Source: a phage
Direction: 5' to 3' (one strand)
Length of the DNA stretch: 64,000 bases
Sequence record: PZ445487.1
The notes below the pieces were generated by a model that saw nothing but the letters and a program-made list of their open reading frames with translations, was not told the DNA's origin and searched no databases. Each line of letters starts with the position of its first letter. The stretch's first letter is position 1. This document shows positions 5,229-55,425 of this stretch, piece by piece. The position numbers and the translations under genes were made by a program.

Positions 5229-6560
5229 TTATAGGCCCAATGCCTTTTCAAGATCATCTAAATCTTCAGTATAAAGATCGATGTCTTGCTTATTATTTAA
5301 TTCTTCTCGTTGAACTTCTAAATTCTTTATCTGGTTCAACAAACGTTCACGGGCATCTAGTGTAATTGATGATAAAGACATCTTGAATAAATCATCGAGA
5401 TCGCCATCAAAATCAGGATAGTCTGTCTGGAATAACGCTTTCAGTTCCGTGAGGCTCCGGCGCATATCTGTAACGACAGCCCACCCAATGAATATGGCAC
5501 GATTGTTCAAACGGTGTATTTTGTCGGTCAATTCCTTGATAAGATACTGACGTCTATCTTCATAGCGACTCAGGCGATAATTGAAAAATGGAAGCAACAT
5601 ATCTTTCCAACCATCGTAACGGTGAATAACACCATCTTCATCCCAAGCTGTCCACACGGGCTTATTAGCTGAGTAGAGGCGGAACATTTGTTCAACCTGT
5701 TCGTCATTCAACTTAGACAATTCACCCCGCTTGAATACAACAGTGATATCCCAACCATCTTCGGTCGTATCGTTAGCATATTCAGTGAGTATGCCGGATT
5801 TGTACAACGGCAACAACACTTTGGTCTCATAGGTTTTAGAGAACCAACCAATAGGAACCTCGGTGATGTTCAGAGTGGTTGCATTGACGCGGGTGAACAA
5901 ACCACGACTGTATGCTCTTCCTTCCTCAGTATAGCCTGTCTCTCCTTTGAAACCATTCCAGTACGGTTTTAAGTCCTTCGGGTCTTCGCCACGGAGAAGT
6001 GCTCTCAGGGCACTGAGTACGGACTTAACGCAGTGACATGGGGTGTCGGTGGCATAACCCGAGCCGATACCATTGATACCATTCACGAGAAACATGGGCA
6101 GGATGGGTAAAAAGAATTTCGGCTCCAGTTTCTCTTCCCCAAGATAATTGTATTCCAATATCCCATCGTCCTCCTTTCGGAAGATTTTACGGATAACTTC
6201 AGACACTGCCACTGAAATATAACGAGCGGAAGACGCTTCGCGCCCCATGATTGAACCAAACTGTCCGTCGCGGTCAAAGTATGGGATGTTATTCGTACCT
6301 GGGAACCCCTGAGCCATGTTCACGATCGTACCGCTCATGTTCTCACCACCGGATTTGTAATTCGTGCGAGCGGCGGCGAACATGCCAAGGCGGTCAACAA
6401 TCTCCTCCTTGTTGTATTCAAGAGCAGCGAAGAGTATCTTGCGCTGGCTTGGCTTCAGGCTGTCAATCAGCTGAGGGATTTGACGGATGCTGTTGACCAC
6501 GGAAAACTCCTTGTGGTCAGTGTTGACAAAGTCCGTTACAGTAATGCTCTTGGCAACCAT
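5229..6560 (-). CDS. 52: DNA topoisomerase II medium subunit (T4 gp52-like, GyrA-type)
   Basis: 443 aa from ATG 6560 (GAGG 9 nt upstream), versus 442 aa for T4 gp52; motifs IDSLKPSQRKILFAAL, GQFGS...ARYI, FFLPILPMFLVNGINGIGSGYAT parallel T4 gp52. Confidence 0.85.
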   Translation of the reverse strand: MVAKSITVTDFVNTDHKEFSVVNSIRQIPQLIDSLKPSQRKILFAALEYNKEEIVDRLGMFAAARTNYKSGGENMSGTIVNMAQGFPGTNNIPYFDRDGQFGSIMGREASSARYISVAVSEVIRKIFRKEDDGILEYNYLGEEKLEPKFFLPILPMFLVNGINGIGSGYATDTPCHCVKSVLSALRALLRGEDPKDLKPYWNGFKGETGYTEEGRAYSRGLFTRVNATTLNITEVPIGWFSKTYETKVLLPLYKSGILTEYANDTTEDGWDITVVFKRGELSKLNDEQVEQMFRLYSANKPVWTAWDEDGVIHRYDGWKDMLLPFFNYRLSRYEDRRQYLIKELTDKIHRLNNRAIFIGWAVVTDMRRSLTELKALFQTDYPDFDGDLDDLFKMSLSSITLDARERLLNQIKNLEVQREELNNKQDIDLYTEDLDDLEKALGL

Positions 6561-32934: not shown

Positions 32935-32973
32935 AGATACCCCACACTGGTCGTATGGGGTATTTAGGATGGA

Positions 32974-45013: not shown

Positions 45014-45053
45014 CTAAATACCCCTAGATGACATGAATACATTTAGGGGTATT
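45014..45053 (+). promoter_or_regulatory. late promoter motif CTAAATACCCC overlapping a 9-bp hairpin (atacccctA...Taggggtat) upstream of TSP4
   Basis: Same architecture upstream of TSP3 and TSP2. Confidence 0.5.
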
Positions 45054-45057
45054 ACAA

Positions 45058-48000
45058 ATGGCCAACAAACCAACACAGCCTCTTTTCCCTTTGGGTTTAG
45101 AAACTTCTGAGTCTTCGAACATAAAAGGCTTCAACAACTCCGGCACTATTGAGCATTCCCCTGGTGCCGTAATGACATTTCCTGAAGATACTGAAGTTAC
45201 AGGTCTTCCATCTTCTGTGCGTTACAATCCTGATAGTGATGAATTTGAAGGTTATTACGAAAACGGTGGTTGGTTGTCTTTGGGGGGTGGTGGAATACGC
45301 TGGGAAACGCTCCCTCACGCTCCCTCTAGCAATTTGTTAGAAGGTCGTGGATATCTCATTAATAATACCACAGGGACATCTACAGTGGTTCTCCCTTCCC
45401 CTACGCGTATTGGGGATTCCGTTACTATTTGTGATGCTTATGGGAAATTTGCCACTTACCCATTGACCGTGTCTCCTTCTGGAAATAATTTGTATGGCTC
45501 CACTGAAGACATGGCTATAACAACTGATAACGTATCAGCAACGTTCACTTGGTCTGGACCTGAACAAGGTTGGGTTATTACATCCGGCGTCGGTCTTGGT
45601 CAAGGCCGTGTCTACAGTCGTGAAATCTTTACACAAATTTTGGCGTCTGAAACAAGTGCTGTCACTCTCAATACTCCACCAACAATTGTGGACGTGTATG
45701 CTGACGGAAAACGTCTTGCGGAATCCAAATATTCATTAGATGGGAATGTAATCACTTTCAGTCCTTCTTTGCCAGCCAGCACTGAATTGCAGGTAATAGA
45801 ATATACTCCTATTCAATTGGGTAATGGCGGTGGTTCTGGTTCTTCTACGATTACCTGGGTCTATAATGGGGGTTCAGCGATTGGCGGTGAAACCGAAATC
45901 ACGTTAGACATCGTTGTTGATGATGTTCCGGCCATTGATATAAACGGAAGTCGCCAGTATAAAAATCTGGGGTTCACATTCGATCCATTAACCAGTAAAA
46001 TCACTCTTGCGCAAGAACTGGATGCAGAGGATGAAGTTGTTGTAATTATCAATGGAACGCCAAACATCTATAATCAAATTGATTATACTTTGCGGGAAGT
46101 GGCTCGCGTAACCAATGTTAAAGATACAGAGGTCATTTATTTTAGTGTTGGTGCTGTGTTAAGCGGGTATAAAGTTATCTATGATAAAGTAACACAGAGA
46201 TCATATTTTATTCCAGAGCTACCGACTGGAACCACGGCAGTCAGCCTTAGTTCTTCGGCTATACTTGTGCATTCTGCTGGTAGTGTTGATCTGGGCGCAT
46301 TAGCTGTATCTCGTGAAGAATATGTTACATTGTCTGGGACATTTGATTCTGGTGCTGTCATCAATACTAAAAATGAATTACTCACCCATACTGATGGAAA
46401 GTATCGTTGGGATGGTACACTTCCTAAAACTGTAGCTGCTGGCTCAACTCCAGCAACAACTGGAGGTGTTGGTTCGGGAGCGTGGTTGAGTGTTGGTGAT
46501 GCATCTCTGAAAAGTAATTTAAATAAACCAAATGGCTTATCTTATATAGGAACCGTATCATCAGTTTCTGAATTATCATCAATAGCAGGATTAATTGGTG
46601 ATTCTATAATTCTTGATTCGTATGTTGACGGGTTTAATCTTGGTGGCGGTGTTATGGTGGCTGTTAACTCAGATACTGTGGTGGATAATATCGTTACTTT
46701 CCAAGGCAATGGTGTCGTTTGGAAAAGGAAATTATTCAACGGTGTGGCGGATGTGTACGAAGCTGGTTATACTGGAACCGGAGATTTGGCTATATTCATC
46801 AATAAAATAAATGCCGTCGGATTTGACTGTATAGTCCCTGTTTCTGGTGAGATAACAACACCGATTATTTTTGATATAGCAAAAGGTGCACTTATTGGAA
46901 AAAATAAATGTACTCTAATAGAATCTGCATCTGCAACGGGCGACTACTATCTAACCATCGTTAATACAGACACGGATTACACCAATAGAGATGTAATTAA
47001 CGCAACTGCGTTAATGACTGGAGTGTCATTTGTTGGAAAAGGGACCAGGAAATTGGCGATCGGTGGTTCTACCAGTGGAGAAGTCTCAGAGTTAAGAATA
47101 TCTAATTGCGGGTTTATCTCAACTGCTGGAATTGAGTTTCTTGATAATGCATATCGTATTCTTTTTGATAAATGTGCGTTGTCCAGAAGTTTTACAAATT
47201 CTGTTATTTTCAATTCACCAGCGAATTCCGGTGAAGTTATAAAATTTAATCATTGTTGGATGGTTGACAACGGTGGACCTTTTACATTCAAGAATGGACA
47301 ATTTATATTCGATAGCTGCTCTCTACCAGCAGGTAAAAAATCAGGATATTTTGACCCTGTTGTTGCGTTATCAGATAACGCAACAACAGTTTTCACAAAT
47401 GGCAACATTGAGTACCAACCTGGTCAGAGTTTCGTTGGGTTTACTGTAGATGGTAGTTCACGATTAAGCATCAGTGATTCGACAATACTGTTGCCGAATG
47501 ATTATTCTACAGTACCTATTGTAAACAACGGGGATGGGGTTGTTAGTCTAAATAATTGCTCGTTACCTCTCTATGGAAGCACAACGATTGCTACTGGGTT
47601 TGCCACACGGCAGTTGATAGGTGGGTTGAGTAAAAAAATAATGTCCAGAGGTTGCTATCCACGAGCAGGGTTTATAACAAGTAACTGGAATTTAGGGTGC
47701 ATTGTAAGCCCTTATATTAATAGTGTTAGTAATGGCTCAGGGCAGTTTGAAAATATATCTAACTGGACACTCTCACAAACTGGAACAGACGTTGTCACTG
47801 TTACTACAGGAAACGATGTTCCTAACGATTTAATGTTTTCAACTTCTTTTGTCTTATCCGTACCAACAGTGGGTGCAGCGGCTAATTTCACCCAGACAAT
47901 CATTGACTGTGAGCCTGGGCGTTATTTTCAACTTGGGTTTTGGGCTAAAAATACAACAACCACCCTGGCATCAATTAGATTCCTGGACCAGCAAGGAAAT

Positions 48001-48168
48001 GCTGTCGCGGATTCCATAGGATATAACATCCCAGTAGGAAACACGTTCAACTTTTATGCTTTGGTGGATTGCGTTCCGCCAGGAGCTTACAAAGCTGAAA
48101 TTAATTTCAATGTTTCCTCTATTGTTGGTGGTATCGCAATACACAATGTCATTTACGGATTGATATGA
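45058..48168 (+). CDS. tailspike protein TSP4-like (1036 aa)
   Basis: Size equals the 1036 aa I recall for CBA120 TSP4; long N-terminal extension plus shared module (VKDTEVIYF...AVSREEYVTL...GKYRWDG) and beta-helix-like C-terminus. Confidence 0.8.
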   Translation: MANKPTQPLFPLGLETSESSNIKGFNNSGTIEHSPGAVMTFPEDTEVTGLPSSVRYNPDSDEFEGYYENGGWLSLGGGGIRWETLPHAPSSNLLEGRGYLINNTTGTSTVVLPSPTRIGDSVTICDAYGKFATYPLTVSPSGNNLYGSTEDMAITTDNVSATFTWSGPEQGWVITSGVGLGQGRVYSREIFTQILASETSAVTLNTPPTIVDVYADGKRLAESKYSLDGNVITFSPSLPASTELQVIEYTPIQLGNGGGSGSSTITWVYNGGSAIGGETEITLDIVVDDVPAIDINGSRQYKNLGFTFDPLTSKITLAQELDAEDEVVVIINGTPNIYNQIDYTLREVARVTNVKDTEVIYFSVGAVLSGYKVIYDKVTQRSYFIPELPTGTTAVSLSSSAILVHSAGSVDLGALAVSREEYVTLSGTFDSGAVINTKNELLTHTDGKYRWDGTLPKTVAAGSTPATTGGVGSGAWLSVGDASLKSNLNKPNGLSYIGTVSSVSELSSIAGLIGDSIILDSYVDGFNLGGGVMVAVNSDTVVDNIVTFQGNGVVWKRKLFNGVADVYEAGYTGTGDLAIFINKINAVGFDCIVPVSGEITTPIIFDIAKGALIGKNKCTLIESASATGDYYLTIVNTDTDYTNRDVINATALMTGVSFVGKGTRKLAIGGSTSGEVSELRISNCGFISTAGIEFLDNAYRILFDKCALSRSFTNSVIFNSPANSGEVIKFNHCWMVDNGGPFTFKNGQFIFDSCSLPAGKKSGYFDPVVALSDNATTVFTNGNIEYQPGQSFVGFTVDGSSRLSISDSTILLPNDYSTVPIVNNGDGVVSLNNCSLPLYGSTTIATGFATRQLIGGLSKKIMSRGCYPRAGFITSNWNLGCIVSPYINSVSNGSGQFENISNWTLSQTGTDVVTVTTGNDVPNDLMFSTSFVLSVPTVGAAANFTQTIIDCEPGRYFQLGFWAKNTTTTLASIRFLDQQGNAVADSIGYNIPVGNTFNFYALVDCVPPGAYKAEINFNVSSIVGGIAIHNVIYGLI

Positions 48169-48179
48169 TTAACAACCAT

Positions 48180-48207
48180 CCCCCGCTTTTGGCGGGGGTC
48201 TTATTAT
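48180..48207 (+). terminator. rho-independent terminator (cccccgc-tttt-gcggggg plus T-rich)
   Basis: Directly after the TSP4 stop. Confidence 0.6.
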
Positions 48208-48264
48208 AAATTTTATTGGTTCTCAGACTAAATACCCCATATTGGTCATCCTTTATGGGGTATT
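48208..48264 (+). promoter_or_regulatory. 57-nt conserved element: late promoter CTAAATACCCC (48228..48238) plus hairpin ataccccat/atggggtat
   Basis: Nearly identical to 50202..50258. Confidence 0.5.
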
Positions 48265-48267
48265 AAC

Positions 48268-50151
48268 ATGATTTCTCAATTCAATCAACCACGCGGCTCC
48301 ACTTCCATAGAAGTTAACAAACAATCTATCGCTCGAAATTTCGGTGTCAAAGAAGACGAAGTCATTTATTTCACTGCTGGTATTGATCTCAGTGGATTTA
48401 AAGTAATTTATGATGAGTCTACCCAACGGGCTTATTCTCTCCCTTTCGGTATTGTTTCAGGGACAACTGCAATTAGTCTGGATGAAAGAGCTATCCTCAC
48501 TCATTCCGCTGGCTCTGTTGACCTTGGGGAATTAGCAGTAAGCCGCGAAGAATATGTGACTTTACCTGGTTCTTTTAATTTCGGCCATACCATTAATGTG
48601 AAAAATGAACTTCTTGTTCACGATGATAAAAAATATCGATGGGATGGTTCTTTGCCAAAGGTAGTTGCCGCTGGTTCTACTCCAGATAGTTCAGGTGGTG
48701 TTGGTTTAGGTGCATGGTTGAGTGTTGGTGACGCGGCATTGAGGGCTGAGTTAAATACAAAGGTCTCAGATGGAACCTTCCCTGCAACTATAAAATATAA
48801 ATATGGGTTGCCATCTGTTATTGATGGTGCTATATACAGAACTGTACAAGATAAGCTGGATGATTTTGTTTTTCTGGAAGACTTTGGAGGCAAGGATGAT
48901 GCTGGTAGTACCGACAATAGCATAGCGTTTCGGAAGGCTTTTGCTTCTGGTGCAAGAAAAATTAGGCTGCGTGGTTCTGGTGTTTATGGTATGGCGACCA
49001 GAGATATTGAGCTTCCAGCAAAATATGAAATTATCGGCAATGCAAAAAATCCAGAAATCAAATATTTAGGCACAGATACATCATTCACTATGTTCACCCT
49101 CACTGGTAGTGGGCCTGCTTCTAACCAGTGGAAACAGGGTGGCATGTTCCGTGATTTAATCATTTCTTCTGATGTGAAGATCAACTGGATGCTAGGCCGA
49201 CATGTACAGAACTTGGATTATGATCGTGTATTCTTCTACAACTCAGCTACTGTGCTGAACAACTATCACTATGTGAACTTTACTCGATGCGAGCGTTGGG
49301 GTAGTGCCTTCATTGGTCGTGCTGATTTGAACACAATACAGTTCATTAGTGAGTCACCTAAGTTCCACTTGTGCTTTAGCTCTGGTTCACCAATTGATGT
49401 GTGGGACACAGCAGACTTGGCAATCACCAAGTGTACTATGTTCGCAGGTGATTATGCAGTTCGTACCCGTGTAACACAGAAACAGGTAACAGCACCAGAC
49501 TTGTTCGCAGGATACCCTGTGCTCATCACGTGTAGTGTGTTCGATGCGGTACGTGGCCATGCTTGGGATTTGGAGGGTTCGGTCTACTCTACCATCACTG
49601 GCAACCTTGTGAGTGCTGGACGTGATACAAACAGTCACGGTGCATACATCAAGGGCGGGCGTAGTTTGTCACTTACTGGCAATGTGTTCACTTACTGTGG
49701 TAACTATGGATTGGTCCTCGAAGATGTACAGCAGTCTGGTTTCGTTGGTAATGTCTTCAACGGTAATAAGACAGGCGGTCTAGGAACCCTCGCCTGCAAA
49801 GACCTCAGCATTGTTGGTGGTAGTATGGGTACAACCTATGTACGTGGTGGGTACTACACTCAGCCTGTAGGTTATTCTGATATATCAAGTAACTCAACTG
49901 GCATTTTACTTAGTGGTGTTGCTTTCGATGAAGCCTTAACTACTAAGGTCTACTTGGACACTAGCATCACTACAAGGAACAAAGTTATTAACTGCTCAGG
50001 TGTTCCTGATACAATAGCTCGTGGTAGTACAGCCAATAGACCTGCCAATCCACAGGCAAGTTATCAATATTATGATACTACTTTAGGCATTCCTATCTGG
50101 TGGAACTCAGTTAGCGGCACATGGAAAAACGCGGCTGGAGCTGATGTTTGA
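48268..50151 (+). CDS. tailspike protein TSP3-like (627 aa)
   Basis: Size equals the 627 aa I recall for CBA120 TSP3; shared N-terminal module; beta-helix-like C-terminus. Confidence 0.8.
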   Translation: MISQFNQPRGSTSIEVNKQSIARNFGVKEDEVIYFTAGIDLSGFKVIYDESTQRAYSLPFGIVSGTTAISLDERAILTHSAGSVDLGELAVSREEYVTLPGSFNFGHTINVKNELLVHDDKKYRWDGSLPKVVAAGSTPDSSGGVGLGAWLSVGDAALRAELNTKVSDGTFPATIKYKYGLPSVIDGAIYRTVQDKLDDFVFLEDFGGKDDAGSTDNSIAFRKAFASGARKIRLRGSGVYGMATRDIELPAKYEIIGNAKNPEIKYLGTDTSFTMFTLTGSGPASNQWKQGGMFRDLIISSDVKINWMLGRHVQNLDYDRVFFYNSATVLNNYHYVNFTRCERWGSAFIGRADLNTIQFISESPKFHLCFSSGSPIDVWDTADLAITKCTMFAGDYAVRTRVTQKQVTAPDLFAGYPVLITCSVFDAVRGHAWDLEGSVYSTITGNLVSAGRDTNSHGAYIKGGRSLSLTGNVFTYCGNYGLVLEDVQQSGFVGNVFNGNKTGGLGTLACKDLSIVGGSMGTTYVRGGYYTQPVGYSDISSNSTGILLSGVAFDEALTTKVYLDTSITTRNKVINCSGVPDTIARGSTANRPANPQASYQYYDTTLGIPIWWNSVSGTWKNAAGADV

Positions 50152-50162
50152 TTGTGATTAAT

Positions 50163-50190
50163 AACTCCGCTTCAGCGGGGTTATTATTAT
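50163..50190 (+). terminator. terminator-like hairpin (ctccgc-ttca-gcgggg) plus TTATTATTAT
   Basis: Directly after the TSP3 stop. Confidence 0.5.
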
Positions 50191-50201
50191 GCCTTTGTTC
50201 A

Positions 50202-50258
50202 TAAATTTTATTAGTTCAGACTAAATACCCCATATTGGCAAATCCTTTATGGGGTATT
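50202..50258 (+). promoter_or_regulatory. 57-nt conserved element: late promoter CTAAATACCCC (50221..50231) plus hairpin
   Basis: Paralogue of 48208..48264. Confidence 0.5.
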
Positions 50259-50263
50259 TTCAA

Positions 50264-53029
50264 ATGACTAGAAATGTAGAAGAATTATTCGGCGGTGTAA
50301 TCACAGCTCCCCACCAGATTCCTTTCACGTATAAATCAAATGTCGGTGGAGAAACTTTCCTTTCCTTGCCGTTCTATCCTGTCACTGGCGTAGTCACAAT
50401 CAACGGTGGTATGCAAGTTCCGTTAGACAACTTTGAAATCGAAGGAAATACATTGAATCTCGGACGCGCATTGTCCAAAGGCGATGTTGTGTATTGCTTA
50501 TTCGATAAAATTCTTTCGCCAGAAGATACAGCCAAAGGTATCCGCATATACAAATTTCAGGCCGTAGGAGGTGAAACCGAGTTCACTCCTGATTTCACAT
50601 CTTATGGAGTCCAATCTCTTTATATCGGTGGCGAGTACAAAACACCCGAAATTGAATATTCCTATGACAGCACGACAGGAAAAGTATCTTTGCAAACTGC
50701 ACTGTCTGCAGGCGTTTGGGTAGTCGCTGAAATGTCTGTTAAACAACCGAATATCAGTCCGGCGTTTGACCGAAGTATTCAAGAAATCGCCCGTTCTGCT
50801 AATGTGAAAGACTCTGAAGTCATCGTTAGTACGGACACCATATCTTTGTTGGATGGGAAGAAAGTTGTTTATGATATAGCGACGCAAACCAGTTATGGTT
50901 TACCAACCATTCCTGATGGTTCTGTCATTTCTTCTGTATCTGCTGGGAAATTGAATTACAACCCAGGTGATGTGCAGGTTGATTTGTTGCCTTTAGAAGA
51001 TTCATTTATTAACGTGATAAACACTCTGGGGCGCAATGATGGTGCCAAGTATATTGGAGAATGCCATTCTGTTGCTGATCTCAGGAATACTGAACCCACT
51101 ATGGATGGACAACGCATTATTCTTAAGCAACACACTGCGGGTACTCTTCTTGGTGGAGGGGTATTCCGTGCGTTAATTGATGGTACAGGAAAGACTGATA
51201 ATAACGGTACTGTGATCAAAACTGTTGGCGGCGCAGCATGGTTACGTGTTAATGCTGATAGAGTTAACCCATTCATGTTTGGTGCTTTGGGTGGTTCTAA
51301 TGATGATACTATTCCAGTACAATCTTGTGTGGATAGTGGTAAGGCCACACAATTAACTGATGCACATTACGTTAGCAATATCCAGTTAAAATATAATACG
51401 TCGTCTATTTATGGGTCTGGATTACATTACTCAAGGTTGCATCAGTTGCCTTCTGCTACTGGGAATTGTATTACCATAAAAGATACATGCTCCCTTATTG
51501 TATTAGACGCCTTTGGGGTATATGGCACAGGTGCACAACAAGGCACGTCATTTACTGCGGGTACAACAGGTATCTATGTAGAAACTCCTTCAGGTCTCTC
51601 AGCCGATTATCCGTTCCACACTACCGCAGACCCAAGACGCGACTTGTGTATTTCTAAAGTCCATATAGCAGGTTTTGATGAATATGGGTTAAATATTGAT
51701 AGTGGTAACTTTAGTGTTACTACAGATTCTCTTTTAGTCAACCACATCAATCAGGTGGGTGTCCGTTGTGCTACTACTGATTGGACTTGGACAAATATCC
51801 AGGTTAATACCTGCGGTAAACAATGTCTAGTTCTTGATGGTTGTGGTAATGGTCGTATTATTGGCGGTAAATTCATTTGGGCTAACTGGCAACCTTATGG
51901 TACAGTAGGACAGTTTCCAGGCATTACTATTAATAACAGCCAGAATATGGTTATTAATGGTATTGAGGTACAAGATTGTGGCGGGAATGGTATTGAGATT
52001 AGCGAGTCATATTCAATTTCCATGAACGGATTGAACACCAATCGTAACGGCATCAATGCTAACAACACTTTCTACAACATCGTATTTAACAAAAGTGATG
52101 CAGTTATCAACGGATTCGTAGGACTCAATTATGCCGCGAATAGTGGTTCAGGTGCTAACTCTAGTGCAGGCAATTTTCAGTTCCTGTCTAATGATTGTAG
52201 TGTCACCATTAATGGTGTGGTTGAGACTGGTTATATGGGCATTAACTTTATTGGTGATAACAATATTATCAACCCCACCAATTCCGACCTGAGCATTAAC
52301 GGATTGGTTAATTATTCCAAGACTGGTTTGCAAACCATGAACGAGACCCCTACATTTGATGGTGTTAGCACTACACCTGTTTATGTAAGTGTCCCATCTT
52401 CTGTGGGGCAAGTAAATGGTCTGAGACTATCACAAGCCAACAAAGATAAATTACTGTACTCAAGAACAGCAGGTCCAGAAGGTATTACCATGGCTGCTGT
52501 TATAGTACCTACCATATCTGGAGCTGAAGTATTTAACTTCATGGCCATTGGTTCAGGGTTTAGTGATACATCCAACAGTCTTCATCTTCAATTAGTTATA
52601 GACGCTTCTGGAAAACAAACAATTGCTTTGCTATTGGGGGGCGATGGTACAACCCAAATTTTATCTGGGGATTTACCTAACGACCTTAAACTACAAAGTG
52701 GTGTGCCATATCATATAGCTATTGGTGCTAAACCTGGATATTTCTGGTGGAGTATTCTTAATATTCAGACGGGTAAGAGAATCAGACGGTCATTCCGAGG
52801 CGCTTATTTAGCCGTACCATTTAATTCTATATTCGGATTAACTTCCTCATTAACATTCTTCTCGGATAGCAATGCTGGTGGGGATGCTTGTTCTGGGGTG
52901 GGCGCTAAAGTGTATGTTGGTATGTTCTCTTCTGAGAACGATTATGTAGCTTCACGATACTACAACCTGATTAATCCTGTAGACCCTACTAAGTTAATTA
53001 GTTACCGTATATTGGATTCTTCTATTTAA
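50264..53029 (+). CDS. tailspike protein TSP2-like (921 aa)
   Basis: Start at the second ATG (50264, MTRNVEELFGG) gives 921 aa, matching the size I recall for CBA120 TSP2; ORF-track start 50249 lies inside the promoter hairpin. Confidence 0.8.
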   Translation: MTRNVEELFGGVITAPHQIPFTYKSNVGGETFLSLPFYPVTGVVTINGGMQVPLDNFEIEGNTLNLGRALSKGDVVYCLFDKILSPEDTAKGIRIYKFQAVGGETEFTPDFTSYGVQSLYIGGEYKTPEIEYSYDSTTGKVSLQTALSAGVWVVAEMSVKQPNISPAFDRSIQEIARSANVKDSEVIVSTDTISLLDGKKVVYDIATQTSYGLPTIPDGSVISSVSAGKLNYNPGDVQVDLLPLEDSFINVINTLGRNDGAKYIGECHSVADLRNTEPTMDGQRIILKQHTAGTLLGGGVFRALIDGTGKTDNNGTVIKTVGGAAWLRVNADRVNPFMFGALGGSNDDTIPVQSCVDSGKATQLTDAHYVSNIQLKYNTSSIYGSGLHYSRLHQLPSATGNCITIKDTCSLIVLDAFGVYGTGAQQGTSFTAGTTGIYVETPSGLSADYPFHTTADPRRDLCISKVHIAGFDEYGLNIDSGNFSVTTDSLLVNHINQVGVRCATTDWTWTNIQVNTCGKQCLVLDGCGNGRIIGGKFIWANWQPYGTVGQFPGITINNSQNMVINGIEVQDCGGNGIEISESYSISMNGLNTNRNGINANNTFYNIVFNKSDAVINGFVGLNYAANSGSGANSSAGNFQFLSNDCSVTINGVVETGYMGINFIGDNNIINPTNSDLSINGLVNYSKTGLQTMNETPTFDGVSTTPVYVSVPSSVGQVNGLRLSQANKDKLLYSRTAGPEGITMAAVIVPTISGAEVFNFMAIGSGFSDTSNSLHLQLVIDASGKQTIALLLGGDGTTQILSGDLPNDLKLQSGVPYHIAIGAKPGYFWWSILNIQTGKRIRRSFRGAYLAVPFNSIFGLTSSLTFFSDSNAGGDACSGVGAKVYVGMFSSENDYVASRYYNLINPVDPTKLISYRILDSSI

Positions 53030-53036
53030 AAAATAT

Positions 53037-53062
53037 ACCCCTCTTCGGAGGGGTCTTTACTA
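53037..53062 (+). terminator. rho-independent terminator (acccctc-ttcg-gaggggt plus T-rich)
   Basis: Directly after the TSP2 stop. Confidence 0.55.
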
Positions 53063-53081
53063 GAAAAACAATGAGGTACTT

Positions 53082-55394
53082 ATGAACGAAATGTTTAGTC
53101 AAGGTGGTAAAGGTTCAACTGGAATCTTAACCAATAAACAAGCAGTAGCCAGACACTTTGGAGTTAAACAATCTGAGGTTGTTTATTTCTCAGTTGGTGT
53201 AGATTTAGGTGGGTATAAAGTTATCTATGACAAGGAAACGCAAAGAGCTTATTCCTTACCTGTTGGTATTGCTTCTGGTACTACTGCCGTCAGTCTTAGT
53301 ACTGCTGCTGTACTTGTACATTCAGCAGGTTCTGTAGACTTAGGTTCATTAGCTGTATCTAGGGAAGAATATGTAACTTTACCTGGTTCATTTGATTCTG
53401 GTTCTACGCTTAATGTTAAAAATGAATTACTTACTTATACGGATGGTAAGTATCGCTGGGATGGGATACTACCTAAAACTGTAGCTCCTGGTTCAACTCC
53501 TGCATCAACTGGCGGCGTTGGTTTAGGCGCGTGGATTAGTGTTGGTGATGCTTCTTTGAGAACACAACTGGCAAACGGCGATGGCTCGTTGATTGGAATT
53601 CATCCACAGGGAACGCTAAATAATGTATTAACTGTACGCACACCTGAACAGTACAATGCGGTAGGCGACGGAATAGCTGACGACACTTCAAAATTAAAAG
53701 AAATGCTTTCAGATATAAACAACGTTCCTGAAACACTTCCTGATGCTGCGGCTGTAAACTCATACATGGAGCAAGTAGCAGTAAAAATTGACCTGACCAA
53801 GTTATACCGTTTCACGGAGACGCTATACATACCACCAGGTGTTTCAATTGAAATACCAACATCAAACTTTTTTACTCGTGAGTGTAAGCAAGGATTGTTT
53901 TATGACCCAGTAGATAAGAATACAGCAGCAATTAGCTTAATGGTGTACCGTAAACAGCCAGATGGTTCATACAAACTCAATAAAGATGTAGATTATTATC
54001 CTACTGGGTTAGATATTGATAATGGGGATGCTATAACATGTGCCAGAAAAATTGATATTAATAACCTTAACCTGATTACAGCACCGGGTGTAAAGGTCGG
54101 TGTTAAATGGATAGGTGGGGCAGGTTGCACTACAAAAGGGTTATCCATTGGGGAGAATACAGGGAGCGATATTACAACAGCAAGACTGCCAAGAGTAGGA
54201 TTATTGCAGTCAGCATCATGGGGTTCTATTCATGAAAATCTACGTATCCTGTATAAAACTCAGGGCGCAGTGTTCATTGACTCTAATGGCGGGGCTGCTG
54301 TAAACAATGCTTACATTTCTCGCCTTGGTAATACTAATGGTGAGTTGGAACAAGCGGTGTATAAACCAGCAGGGTTTACTGAGGTAGGTGATGTTGCCGT
54401 CACTCAGTTTGCAGGTTCAGAGGTTAAGTTTAATAGCCCAATCATCGAACAAGCATCCTTCGACTTTGTTCACGCTGGTCGGGATACTGATTCCTATGGT
54501 TTATTTATGGTTGATAAACCCCATATTGAGTCATCTGGCGGGAAGAAAAAACATAGCTTCTATCTTATCAATACCAGTTCGAATGTTACGTTGTCAGGAG
54601 TAGGTCTTTCAGGACAAGACCCTGATTTGGATAGCATGTACTTCCTTAAAAACTGTCCAGAAACTGCCAGAAATGTTGTTAGAGGACAAATGCCAATAAG
54701 TGGCGTAAAACTCGTTAGGGGTACTGGTAATTACCCCACATTGGTACTCGACTGTACAAATATGGGAAGTCAATTCCAATTTGGAGAAGTTGGTGACATT
54801 TTCTATATCAAAGATGTTGTTGGTGTAAAAGCAGATACTCTTTATATAGACCCAGTGAATGGTAATAATTATAACTGGGGGACCAATGGGACTAAACCTA
54901 TACGGGAATTAACTAATATTGCAAAGATATGCCAGCTTTTTAGATGTAAAAGTGTTTATCTTAATGCTGGAGAATCAGTTATTACATCTAACACAGAATT
55001 GCCTATGGTGGTGTTTGAAGGTCCTGGAAGCTTAAAAGCAAATTCTGGTAGTAGTTTCCTTATTAAAGCAGGTGGCACATTATCACTAATTGGCCTTTCT
55101 GGAATATCTACAGATGGTGGTCATATGTTCAGGGTGTCCACAGTAGAGAAGGTAAATATACACACAAACTGTTCAGTTAATGCTGGTGCGGCTTATGTTG
55201 TTCTAAGTGAGGTTCAAGGTAATATTGAATACAGGCAATTATTTTATTCAGTAAACTGTTCTAAGTATATTGGTGCAACTGCTGGACAAACTATCGCTGG
55301 TATTATGGTTAAGACTGCAACAAGACCGACAGGAATCGATGCTGCTCCAGTTGATGGTAATGTTTCTCTAACCTATAAAATTATAGAATCATAA
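53082..55394 (+). CDS. tailspike protein TSP1-like (770 aa)
   Basis: Size equals the 770 aa I recall for CBA120 TSP1; shared N-terminal module (VKQSEVVYF...AVSREEYVTL...GKYRWDG). Confidence 0.8.
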   Translation: MNEMFSQGGKGSTGILTNKQAVARHFGVKQSEVVYFSVGVDLGGYKVIYDKETQRAYSLPVGIASGTTAVSLSTAAVLVHSAGSVDLGSLAVSREEYVTLPGSFDSGSTLNVKNELLTYTDGKYRWDGILPKTVAPGSTPASTGGVGLGAWISVGDASLRTQLANGDGSLIGIHPQGTLNNVLTVRTPEQYNAVGDGIADDTSKLKEMLSDINNVPETLPDAAAVNSYMEQVAVKIDLTKLYRFTETLYIPPGVSIEIPTSNFFTRECKQGLFYDPVDKNTAAISLMVYRKQPDGSYKLNKDVDYYPTGLDIDNGDAITCARKIDINNLNLITAPGVKVGVKWIGGAGCTTKGLSIGENTGSDITTARLPRVGLLQSASWGSIHENLRILYKTQGAVFIDSNGGAAVNNAYISRLGNTNGELEQAVYKPAGFTEVGDVAVTQFAGSEVKFNSPIIEQASFDFVHAGRDTDSYGLFMVDKPHIESSGGKKKHSFYLINTSSNVTLSGVGLSGQDPDLDSMYFLKNCPETARNVVRGQMPISGVKLVRGTGNYPTLVLDCTNMGSQFQFGEVGDIFYIKDVVGVKADTLYIDPVNGNNYNWGTNGTKPIRELTNIAKICQLFRCKSVYLNAGESVITSNTELPMVVFEGPGSLKANSGSSFLIKAGGTLSLIGLSGISTDGGHMFRVSTVEKVNIHTNCSVNAGAAYVVLSEVQGNIEYRQLFYSVNCSKYIGATAGQTIAGIMVKTATRPTGIDAAPVDGNVSLTYKIIES

Positions 55395-55395
55395 T

Positions 55396-55425
55396 AAAAA
55401 CCCCGCTTCGGCGGGGTTTTTATTT
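55396..55425 (+). terminator. strong rho-independent terminator (aaaaaccccgc-ttcg-gcggggttttt)
   Basis: Perfect GC stem plus U-tract after the TSP1 stop. Confidence 0.7.

Follow-up and report, generated by a model that had tools for sequence, protein, structure and literature searches.

A paralogous TD1-TD2 head module in three tailspike genes of phage CBA120 and its likely place at the 5' boundary of receptor-binding cassettes

The tailspike genes and their shared module

The window examined here, a 64,000-nt stretch of record PZ445487.1, is that of Escherichia phage CBA120, being 100% identical to JN593240 across orf213-orf210. The names TSP4, TSP3, TSP2 and TSP1 given to its tailspike genes in the initial annotation are correct, and belong to orf213, orf212, orf211 and orf210, respectively. 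The four tailspikes set host range in Ackermannviridae phages, which are in use for the biocontrol and detection of E. coli O157 and Salmonella and for which CBA120 is the structural model.

A module recurring in TSP4, TSP3 and TSP1 had been described in the same annotation, and we confirm it, with coordinates that were right to within a few bases. A segment of about 430 nt lies on the plus strand at 46093..46503 in TSP4 (aa 346-482), where it is internal, and at 48322..48744 in TSP3 (aa 19-159) and 53139..53560 in TSP1 (aa 20-160), where it is N-terminal. The copies are 63-71% identical in amino acids and 61-76% identical in nucleotides (61-69% when codon-aligned, 67-76% in blastn cores). TSP4 and TSP1 match at 76.3% over 400 nt (blastn E 6e-80) and at 71% between aa 346-498 and 20-172 (blastp E 2e-60); TSP3 and TSP1 at 67.5% over 428 nt (E 3e-37) and at 70% between aa 1-162 and 1-163; and TSP4 and TSP3 at 70% over 233 nt (E 4e-25) and at 63% between aa 335-489 and 8-163. 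A repeat search recovers two direct-repeat families of three copies each, one of 288 nt at 46226/48458/53275 (66% and 80% identity to the TSP4 copy) and one of 91 nt at 46117/48346/53163 (66% and 75%). Among all pairs of copies, the longest stretch without a mismatch is the 20-nt run GGGTATAAAGTTATCTATGA at 46165..46184 on the plus strand, found also at 53211-53230 in TSP1, and the longest between TSP4 and TSP3 is the 17-nt run TGGTTGAGTGTTGGTGA at 46483..46499, likewise on the plus strand and found also at 48715-48731.

The module encodes the tandem TD1-TD2 domains of CBA120 tailspikes, elsewhere named D1-D2 or the "head". By phmmer it matches 5W6H (the TSP4 copy, of identical sequence; E 2e-97, residues 5-162), 4OJ5 of TSP1 (E 9e-64, residues 20-168), 6NW9/5W6F of TSP3 (E 1e-56; residues 13-164 of 6NW9) and 4QNL, the gp63.1 protein of G7C (E 7e-50, residues 21-166), and the TSP4, TSP3 and TSP1 segments show the same fold in crystal structures 5W6H, 6NW9 and 4OJ5. 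The family PF18668 (Tail_spike_N), which covers the TD2 half, is found in TSP4 (84.1 bits, aa 416-481), TSP3 (101.2 bits, aa 90-155) and TSP1 (82.3 bits, aa 91-156), against a curated gathering cutoff of 25 bits; in the TSP4 copy TD1 extends to ~46320, and TD2, by this Pfam match, spans ~46303-46500. That the similarity is an accident of chance or composition (low complexity, codon bias) would agree with the modest nucleotide identity and with nothing else, and this is refuted by blastn E-values of 6e-80 to 4e-25, by blastp E-values of 1e-55 to 1e-71, and by one fold in three crystal structures and a Pfam family above threshold.

TSP1 docks through its TD1 (D1) domain on the XD3 domain of TSP4, as established by analytical ultracentrifugation, and docking of the TSP3 head needs the assembly of TSP2 with TSP4 XD3 (PMC8825819). 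In TSP4 itself, the module is placed between XD3 and the receptor-binding β-helix. The module as such plugs three of the four CBA120 tailspikes into the branched host-recognition complex, a system already well studied, and the need for this domain in assembly is the main reason for the repeat (PMC8825819). The published TD1-TD2 or D1-D2 head of Ackermannviridae tailspikes (Plattner et al. 2019, via PMC8432352; Chao et al. 2022, PMC8825819) and this module are one and the same: the crystallised sequences are those of CBA120, TSP2 is TD1-only as published, and there is no difference at the protein level.

TSP2 (orf211) carries a half-copy of the module, comprising TD1 only, at 50780..50995 on the plus strand, recognisable at the protein level with 35-38% amino acid identity. 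Residues 178-249 (926-aa ORF numbering) are 38% identical to aa 20-92 of TSP1, residues 162-244 of the TSP2 structure 6W4Q match the first half of the module only (query residues 1-83), and PF18668 has no match in TSP2, which fits a protein that contains TD1 only (PMC8432352). No blastn match to this copy was found at word size 7, which means that at the DNA level it does not count as a repeat. The diverged fourth copy proposed earlier thus stands as protein homology to the module's first half, and with DNA-level similarity absent it cannot join in recombination.

Directly C-terminal to the module lies the variable β-helix receptor-binding/depolymerase part, marked in TSP3 by Beta_helix and NosD matches at aa 376-506, and homology to both paralogs and orthologs collapses there, at ~46500, 48744 and 53560. 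Among the matches listed, partial matches to relatives stop at 48731-48744 in TSP3 and at 53551-53560 in TSP1. A conserved sequence repeated beside variable segments is the arrangement expected of a recombination linker.

Age and constraint of the copies

Synonymous divergence between the copies is saturated, with dS of 0.99-3.1, dN/dS of 0.08-0.21, identity at third codon positions of 43-52% and longest exact runs of 20, 17 and 14 nt. The copies are ancient intragenomic paralogs maintained by purifying selection on the protein. Concerted evolution, in which ongoing intragenomic gene conversion keeps the three copies similar, calls for low synonymous divergence between them, and apart from the TSP4/TSP1 pair, whose dS is lower in the TD2 half (0.66) than in the TD1 half (1.63), a hint of less ancient exchange in the former, the observations run against it: dS is 1-3 overall, third positions are as divergent as stated, exact runs do not exceed 20 nt, and a survey of 16 kuttervirus clusters (16 genomes) turned up no match of at least 85% that was both cross-slot and confined to the module. 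We regard gene conversion as effectively refuted.

Given the saturated dS and exact runs of 14-20 nt, the copies are poor substrates for classical homologous recombination. The tens of nucleotides of uninterrupted identity needed for efficient homologous recombination are not present, and such runs, together with the low nucleotide identity, are marginal for RecA-type recombination, so that between copies short-homology or homeologous events alone are plausible. The CBA120 genome gives no sign of recent exchange between the copies, which are 61-76% identical and saturated at synonymous sites. The idea that these repeats are recombination substrates is accordingly weak within CBA120; it does gain, however, from chimeric and deleted tailspike genes of related phages, whose junctions lie in the module.

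Junctions in related phages

The relatives sampled comprise 11 IMG/VR loci, recovered by a scan with the TSP4 N-terminus, and GenBank phage records. They supplied some five cross-slot genes and a single deletion, with junctions placed by using the CBA120 paralogs as proxies for the true parents. The cross-slot genes join a 5' part of slot-4 or slot-3 type to a 3' RBD found in another slot of CBA120, and the switch is inside the module. In the cross-slot chimeras of FEC14, SF02, BRM 13314 and SS3, the switch in parent falls in the final ~115 nt of the module, 46387..46500 on the plus strand, which is the 3' end of TD2, ending ...THTDGKYRWDGTLPKTVAAGSTPATTGGVGSGAWLSVGD. Through 46386 the slot-4 genes of these four phages are 96-100% identical to TSP4 against 76-79% to TSP1, and beyond ~46500 their identity to TSP1 is 95-96%. 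Nowhere are the TSP4 and TSP1 copies more alike than in the zone 46387-46500 (96/114 nt), and because the copies are ~84% identical there, it holds few informative sites; some chimeras display a mosaic A/B pattern across it. SF02 has a clean switch at 46443-46452 (53492-53501 in TSP1), and in the slot-3 gene of FEC14 TSP3-type sequence gives way to TSP4-type sequence at 48649/46419. Three TSP genes are present in phage maane, which carries a TSP4::TSP3 fusion and no separate tsp3; the fusion junction is inside the 17-nt run at 46483-46499, and beyond the fused gene the sequence is the same as that found 3' of TSP3.

Natural junctions thus lie inside conserved sequence. The initial annotation had reasoned that nucleotide identity too low for homologous recombination, with breakpoints in relatives lying elsewhere, would speak against its proposal; identity is indeed only 61-76%, but breakpoints do not lie elsewhere, since the relatives' junctions, that of maane included, map inside the module. 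In contrast, the suggestion that direct repeats could swap receptor-binding C-termini fails for a single genome, in which recombination between them deletes the intervening genes, as in the maane type. To swap a C-terminus, another genome must take part and a further crossover must occur; this crossover maps to the intergenic repeats that carry a terminator and late promoter.

One alternative, which we consider unlikely, is that the repeat is a conserved domain and nothing else, its DNA similarity being mechanistically idle, and that chimeras arose through random or illegitimate joining or else by same-slot crossing-over in N-terminal regions that are 95-99% identical. Selection for proteins able to assemble would then make junctions appear at the domain boundary. 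Low paralog identity, short exact runs and saturated dS are all in keeping with this; the boundaries of same-slot identity at the 3' end of the module (46502-46520, 48731-48744 and 53551-53560), which we rejected as crossover evidence, for the most part mark just the end of homology; engineered fusions indicate that the boundary is structurally permissive; and selection that kept the slot-specific TD1 while the RBD was replaced would concentrate surviving junctions in TD2 anyway. It accounts less well, however, for junctions that fall within shared sequence (the 17-nt run in maane, identical intervals of 8-15 nt in SF02 and FEC14) and within the sub-segment of highest paralog similarity (~84%), and all cross-slot junctions are in frame, in register and without indels, as homology-guided exchange predicts.

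The start of cross-slot similarity in megablast (TSP1 nt 82-124 / window 46270) was rejected as a breakpoint because megablast extends through paralogous similarity, and informative sites place the switch 160-270 nt further 3'. A hairpin at 46448-46465, within the junction zone, has no counterpart in the TSP1 and TSP3 copies and was not taken as meaningful; terminator-like hairpins across the region number 10, versus 8.1 expected from shuffled sequence.

On the 3' side, the TSP4-TSP3 spacer (48180..48238, plus strand) contains a terminator-like hairpin at 48180-48198, ATAAATTTTAT at 48206-48216 and CTAAATACCCC at 48228-48238. The TSP3-TSP2 spacer (50165..50231, plus strand) is paralogous to it, with a hairpin at 50165-50180, ATAAATTTTAT at 50201-50211, CTAAATACCCC at 50221-50231, and an exact 23-nt repeat shared between the two at 48223 and 50216. 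The 3' junctions of exchanged RBD cassettes fall in the interval bounded by the terminator hairpin and CTAAATACCCC, and the TSP4-TSP3 spacer is the 3' boundary zone of such cassettes.

Proposed cassette exchange and comparison with known systems

The best explanation for these observations, to which we assign a probability of about 80%, is that the repeat reflects TD1-TD2 paralogy and that the 3' end of the module is the 5' boundary of RBD cassettes exchanged through short-homology crossovers. The module's 3' end would delimit exchangeable receptor-binding cassettes on one side, a role that the junctions bear out in part and that in part we infer, and the terminator/late-promoter spacer after each gene would delimit them on the other. 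On rare occasions, copies belonging to different slots may have crossed over through short homology (homeologous exchange) within the terminal ~115 nt of the module; such events may have moved RBDs between slots in other kutterviruses, and in maane may have removed the TSP4 RBD and the TSP3 N-terminus to leave a three-TSP phage. Such crossovers were probably guided by homology rather than random and then selected; a recombinase would presumably act on them, and CBA120 would be expected to undergo them at a measurable rate.

A broader proposition, which we put forward tentatively and with some doubt, is that the TSP array evolves by unequal short-homology crossing-over in the zone 46387-46500 rather than at the motif GTTAVSL, and that this zone and the spacers together make up a two-sided cassette system. 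If so, RBDs would hop between slots, deletions to three TSPs (as in maane) and, reciprocally, expanded arrays would arise, and CBA120 lysates would hold predictable, measurable slot-shuffled and deletion variants.

The repeat is real but already known, and the recombination idea has been published. Sørensen et al. 2021 (PMC8432352) put forward RBD movement between TSP slots via the shared module, proposed GTTAVSL in TD1 as the site, and reported the cross-slot subtypes TSP1-1≈TSP4-7, TSP3-3≈TSP4-2 and TSP3-1≈TSP4-8. For TSP1, TSP3 and TSP4 of Kuttervirus, the hypothesis and the example phages (FEC14, SS3, Se-E and maane) are alike, whereas the site differs: past GTTAVSL (46228) the slot-4 chimeras remain 96-100% TSP4-like for 159 nt more before switching within 46387-46500, and maane has its junction at 46483-46499. 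At the protein level similarity starts at aa 65/391, apparently because the paralogs themselves are better conserved beyond that point. The only increment here is the mapping of junctions at the nucleotide level, which makes for modest additions: junctions unlike the published motif, a natural direct-repeat deletion in maane, and a 3' cassette boundary in the spacers.

Engineered fusions are functional at TSP4 aa 479/480, TSP3 aa 157, TSP1 aa ~150 and TSP2 aa 249/250 (PMC9965104; Viruses 2023;15:286), and the engineers' fusion points coincide with the module's 3' end. Exact points of cassette exchange can guide the engineering of chimeric tailspikes and the prediction of host-range shifts, uses that are already established. 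Derivatives of S117 underwent spontaneous tsp4/tsp5 recombination with tsp3 deletion (PMC11414711), and like the engineered fusions this is a related observation that bears on the paralogous module copies indirectly.

In the two-tailspike system of G7C-like phages (Schitoviridae; gp63.1/gp66; Prokhorov et al. 2017, via PMC8825819; bioRxiv 10.1101/542787), gp63.1 has the TD1-TD2 module, as its match to 4QNL shows. FSL SP-076 shares 53034-53551 at 92.9% nucleotide identity, and PhAPEC5 shares the module together with the TSP4 RBD. RBD swaps in this group are likewise bounded by a conserved N-terminus and a terminator-like stem-loop, but unlike CBA120 these phages have a single docking tailspike per genome, and therefore no intragenomic paralogous repeats, so that cross-slot events are impossible.

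Conserved-motif recombination is also said to operate in the distal tail-fibre genes of T-even phages, where, in the His-box model credited to Tétart et al. 1998, short conserved coding motifs reportedly flank variable adhesin segments and crossovers in them reshuffle host specificity. The T-even motifs are short and repeated inside a single gene, whereas in CBA120 the shared element is a whole folded docking domain in separate genes, and the evidence for its role is comparative.

The tailspike array and its shared module

Ackermannviridae carry a branched complex of four tailspikes, for which CBA120 serves as the structural model. The corresponding region of CBA120 (JN593240/NC_016570, 118908-129244, opposite strand) is 100% identical to window 45058-55394 and holds TSP4/orf213 (45058-48168, 1036 aa), TSP3/orf212 (48268-50151, 627 aa), TSP2/orf211 (50249 or 50264 to 53029, 926 or 921 aa) and TSP1/orf210 (53082-55394, 770 aa). 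The ATG at 50249 that starts the mechanical TSP2 ORF sits within the GGGGTAT arm of an upstream inverted repeat, and the published length of 921 aa implies a start at 50264 (MTRNVEE...).

The coding repeat in TSP4, TSP3 and TSP1 claimed in the initial annotation is borne out by repeat search, blastn and blastp. The repeat search returned a three-copy direct-repeat family of 288 nt (46226/48458/53275) in register with another of 91 nt (46117/48346/53163), and blastn identity is 76.3% over 400 nt (E 6e-80) for TSP4/TSP1, 67.5% over 428 nt (E 3e-37) for TSP3/TSP1 and 70% over 233 nt (E 4e-25) for TSP4/TSP3; the same pairs share 71%, 70% and 63% by blastp, and 69%, 64% and 61% when codon-aligned over ~495 nt with the flanks counted in. 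The diverged TSP2 copy also proposed there stands at the protein level, across the first half of the module only (35-38% amino-acid identity), but not as a DNA repeat, since no nucleotide similarity between TSP2 and the other copies was detectable. TSP2 and TSP4 share a further domain just 5' of the module, XD3 (TSP4 aa 273-345, 45874-46092; TSP2 aa 104-177, 50558-50779; ~35% aa identity), and their paralogy thus comprises XD3 plus TD1. Within their β-helices, TSP4 (aa 629-703, 46942-47166) and TSP1 (aa 304-391, 53991-54254) are weakly similar (26% aa, E ~4e-4).

The N-terminus of PDB 5W6H is the translation of the TSP4 segment, which also matches TSP1 4OJ5 (E 9e-64), TSP3 6NW9/5W6F (1e-56) and G7C gp63.1 4QNL (7e-50); its match to TSP2 6W4Q is limited to the segment's first 83 residues. 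A Pfam search placed PF18668 (Tail_spike_N) across the second half of the module in TSP4, TSP3 and TSP1 and gave no match to it in TSP2. The two domains have been named TD1-TD2 (Plattner 2019, via PMC8432352) or the D1-D2 head (PMC8825819), and ultracentrifugation demonstrated that the TSP1 D1 domain binds TSP4 XD3 and that the TSP3 head enters the TSP2:TSP4 complex only with TSP4 XD3 present (PMC8825819). By tblastn, the module is found in 986 phage records: in full in Ackermannviridae and G7C-like Schitoviridae, as TD1 alone in some ~150-kb coliphages, and as TD2 alone in many ~40-kb and ~48-kb phages.

In Salmonella phage FSL SP-076 (Schitoviridae, 72-kb, N4-like), positions 5952-6470 match window 53034-53551 at 92.9% over 519 nt; this block comprises the TSP2-TSP1 spacer hairpin and the entire TSP1 TD1-TD2 module, its identity stops exactly at the module 3' end, and it suggests that the docking module was recently transferred between phage families. 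The variable receptor-binding part (RBD) of TSP4 (46246-48168, O78-specific) is 78-88% identical in nucleotides to tailspikes of unrelated 44-150 kb coliphages (PD06/PD114, PJ16, ASO78B, AVIO78A, PhAPEC5/7, EC1-UPM and Bp4), several with O78 hosts, and in PhAPEC5 the similarity starts within the module. A 27-nt perfect palindrome, TTGTTGCGTTATCAGATAACGCAACAA (47360-47386), lies within this region and extends by self-blast to a 33-nt near-palindrome.

Divergence of the copies and same-slot boundaries

Third codon positions are just 43-52% identical between copies, Nei-Gojobori dS is 0.99 (TSP4/TSP1), 2.6 (TSP4/TSP3) and 3.1 (TSP3/TSP1), and dN/dS is 0.08-0.21. Exact runs reach at most 20 nt for TSP4/TSP1 (46165-46184 = 53211-53230), 17 nt for TSP4/TSP3 (46483-46499 = 48715-48731) and 14 nt for TSP3/TSP1 (48559-48572 = 53376-53389), and none of 16 kuttervirus clusters shows module-only similarity across slots of 85% or more. 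On these features the copies are ancient paralogs under protein-level constraint; gene conversion does not homogenise them, and they offer classical homologous recombination only a weak substrate. The TSP4/TSP1 dS is 0.66 in the TD2 half versus 1.63 in the TD1 half, which hints at a later exchange in TD2; nothing in the data points to recent exchange in CBA120 itself.

Among 11 IMG/VR loci compared within the same slot (position in the array), high identity to CBA120 stops in TSP4 at 46502-46535 in eight, 46108-46138 in two and 46055 in one; in TSP3 at 48743-48744 in all 10 gene-bearing loci; in TSP1 at 53555-53558, 53482 or 53186; and in TSP2, where the RBD differs, at 50631-51003. All partial matches listed for GenBank phages end at 46502-46520 (TSP4), 53551-53560 (TSP1) and 48731-48744 (TSP3). 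These ends show the module 3' end as the divide between the conserved part and the variable RBD. They do not locate the crossovers, since identity within a slot is 92-99% upstream of them and a crossover is possible anywhere in that stretch.

Cross-slot junctions and the probable maane deletion

The breakpoints in relatives that the initial annotation named as a check are therefore uninformative on crossovers where the slot is unchanged, but in four phages cross-slot switches do lie inside the module. FEC14, SF02, BRM 13314 and SS3 each have a slot-4 gene (anchor and XD domains) with the RBD of CBA120 TSP1, and the FEC14 slot-3 gene has that of CBA120 TSP4. At informative sites (positions where two CBA120 paralogs differ) the switch of parent is sharp: 46443-46452 (TSP1 53492-53501) in SF02 slot 4, ~46422-46438 in FEC14 slot 4, from ~46387 with a short mosaic stretch in BRM 13314 and SS3 slot 4, and 48649/46419 in FEC14 slot 3. 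Over 46228-46386 the slot-4 chimeras match TSP4 at 153-159 of 159 nt and TSP1 at 121-125, and in the 300 nt past 46500 they match TSP1 at 284-287. Since they are TSP4-like over the former interval, the DNA switch is not at GTTAVSL (window 46228), the recombination site proposed in the module (PMC8432352); crossovers appear to fall in the last ~115 nt, the stretch of greatest TSP4/TSP1 likeness (96/114 nt). Next to where SF02 switches, this zone also holds a small hairpin (CTCCAG-CAACAA-CTGGAG, 46448-46465) that neither the TSP1 nor the TSP3 copy has and that probably reflects chance.

In Salmonella phage maane (MT074480, 6589-14368) the stretch from the baseplate genes to VrlC holds three tailspike genes rather than four. 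The first is TSP4-like to the equivalent of window 46482 and from 46500 is of the same type as the common slot-3 RBD, the interval being the 17-nt exact run TGGTTGAGTGTTGGTGA; past its stop, the sequence is identical to that after TSP3 in other phages. The gene is consistent with the product expected if the module copies of TSP4 and TSP3 recombined, with loss of the TSP4 RBD, the TSP3 N-terminus and the spacer between the two genes. That module recombination can reshape RBDs has here a natural case, but with fusion and deletion as its outcome; the proposal that intragenomic repeats could swap C-termini needs correction, as recombination within one genome would delete spikes.

The best-supported reading has two parts: the repeat would exist because each spike needs the TD1-TD2 fold, and the module DNA, the TD2 3' end above all, would occasionally have acted as a short homology in exchange between slots and in deletion. 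Selection probably holds the slot-specific TD1 to its slot, which would drive surviving junctions into TD2, an effect not separable here from homology guidance. Experiments with related phages support plasticity and a permissive boundary: engineered fusions are functional at TSP4 aa 479/480, TSP3 aa 157, TSP1 aa ~150 and TSP2 aa 249/250 (PMC9965104), and S117 derivatives displayed spontaneous tsp4/tsp5 recombination and tsp3 deletion (PMC11414711).

The 3' cassette boundary and published systems

GC-rich terminator-like hairpins (CCCCGC-TTCG-GCGGGG type) lie 3' of all four TSP genes (48180-48198, 50165-50180, 53038-53053, 55401-55416). The spacer between TSP4 and TSP3 is a paralog of that between TSP3 and TSP2, and the two share an exact 23-nt repeat (48223 and 50216). 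The motif CTAAATACCCC, with a GGGGTAT inverted partner 20-25 nt downstream, occurs just upstream of TSP4 (45014-45052), TSP3 (48228-48263) and TSP2 (50221-50257); with a further copy on the minus strand (32957-32967), there are four exact copies in the window versus 0.65 expected, and it resembles the late-promoter consensus reported in ViI-like phages. The motif is absent upstream of TSP1, where there is only the hairpin and a ribosome-binding site, so that TSP1 and TSP2 may share a transcript. In FEC14 and SF02, the chimeras are donor-type through the stop codon and hairpin, and then slot-type before CTAAATACCCC.

Publications on Ackermannviridae already describe the domain, its occurrence as a repeat in TSP1, TSP3 and TSP4, the TD1-only TSP2, RBDs shared across slots and the hypothesis of recombination; the finding of the initial annotation is correct, yet already known. 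Added here are junctions mapped at nucleotide level, 160-270 nt downstream of the GTTAVSL motif, the interpretation of maane as a deletion between direct repeats at 17 nt of identity, and the location of the cassette's 3' boundary, which lies between the genes, in their spacers. The chimeras found here agree with two published subtype pairs, TSP1-1≈TSP4-7 and TSP4-2≈TSP3-3 (PMC8432352), and the spacer switch of FEC14 and SF02 is similar to the RBD exchange of G7C-like phages, which is bounded by a terminator (bioRxiv 10.1101/542787).
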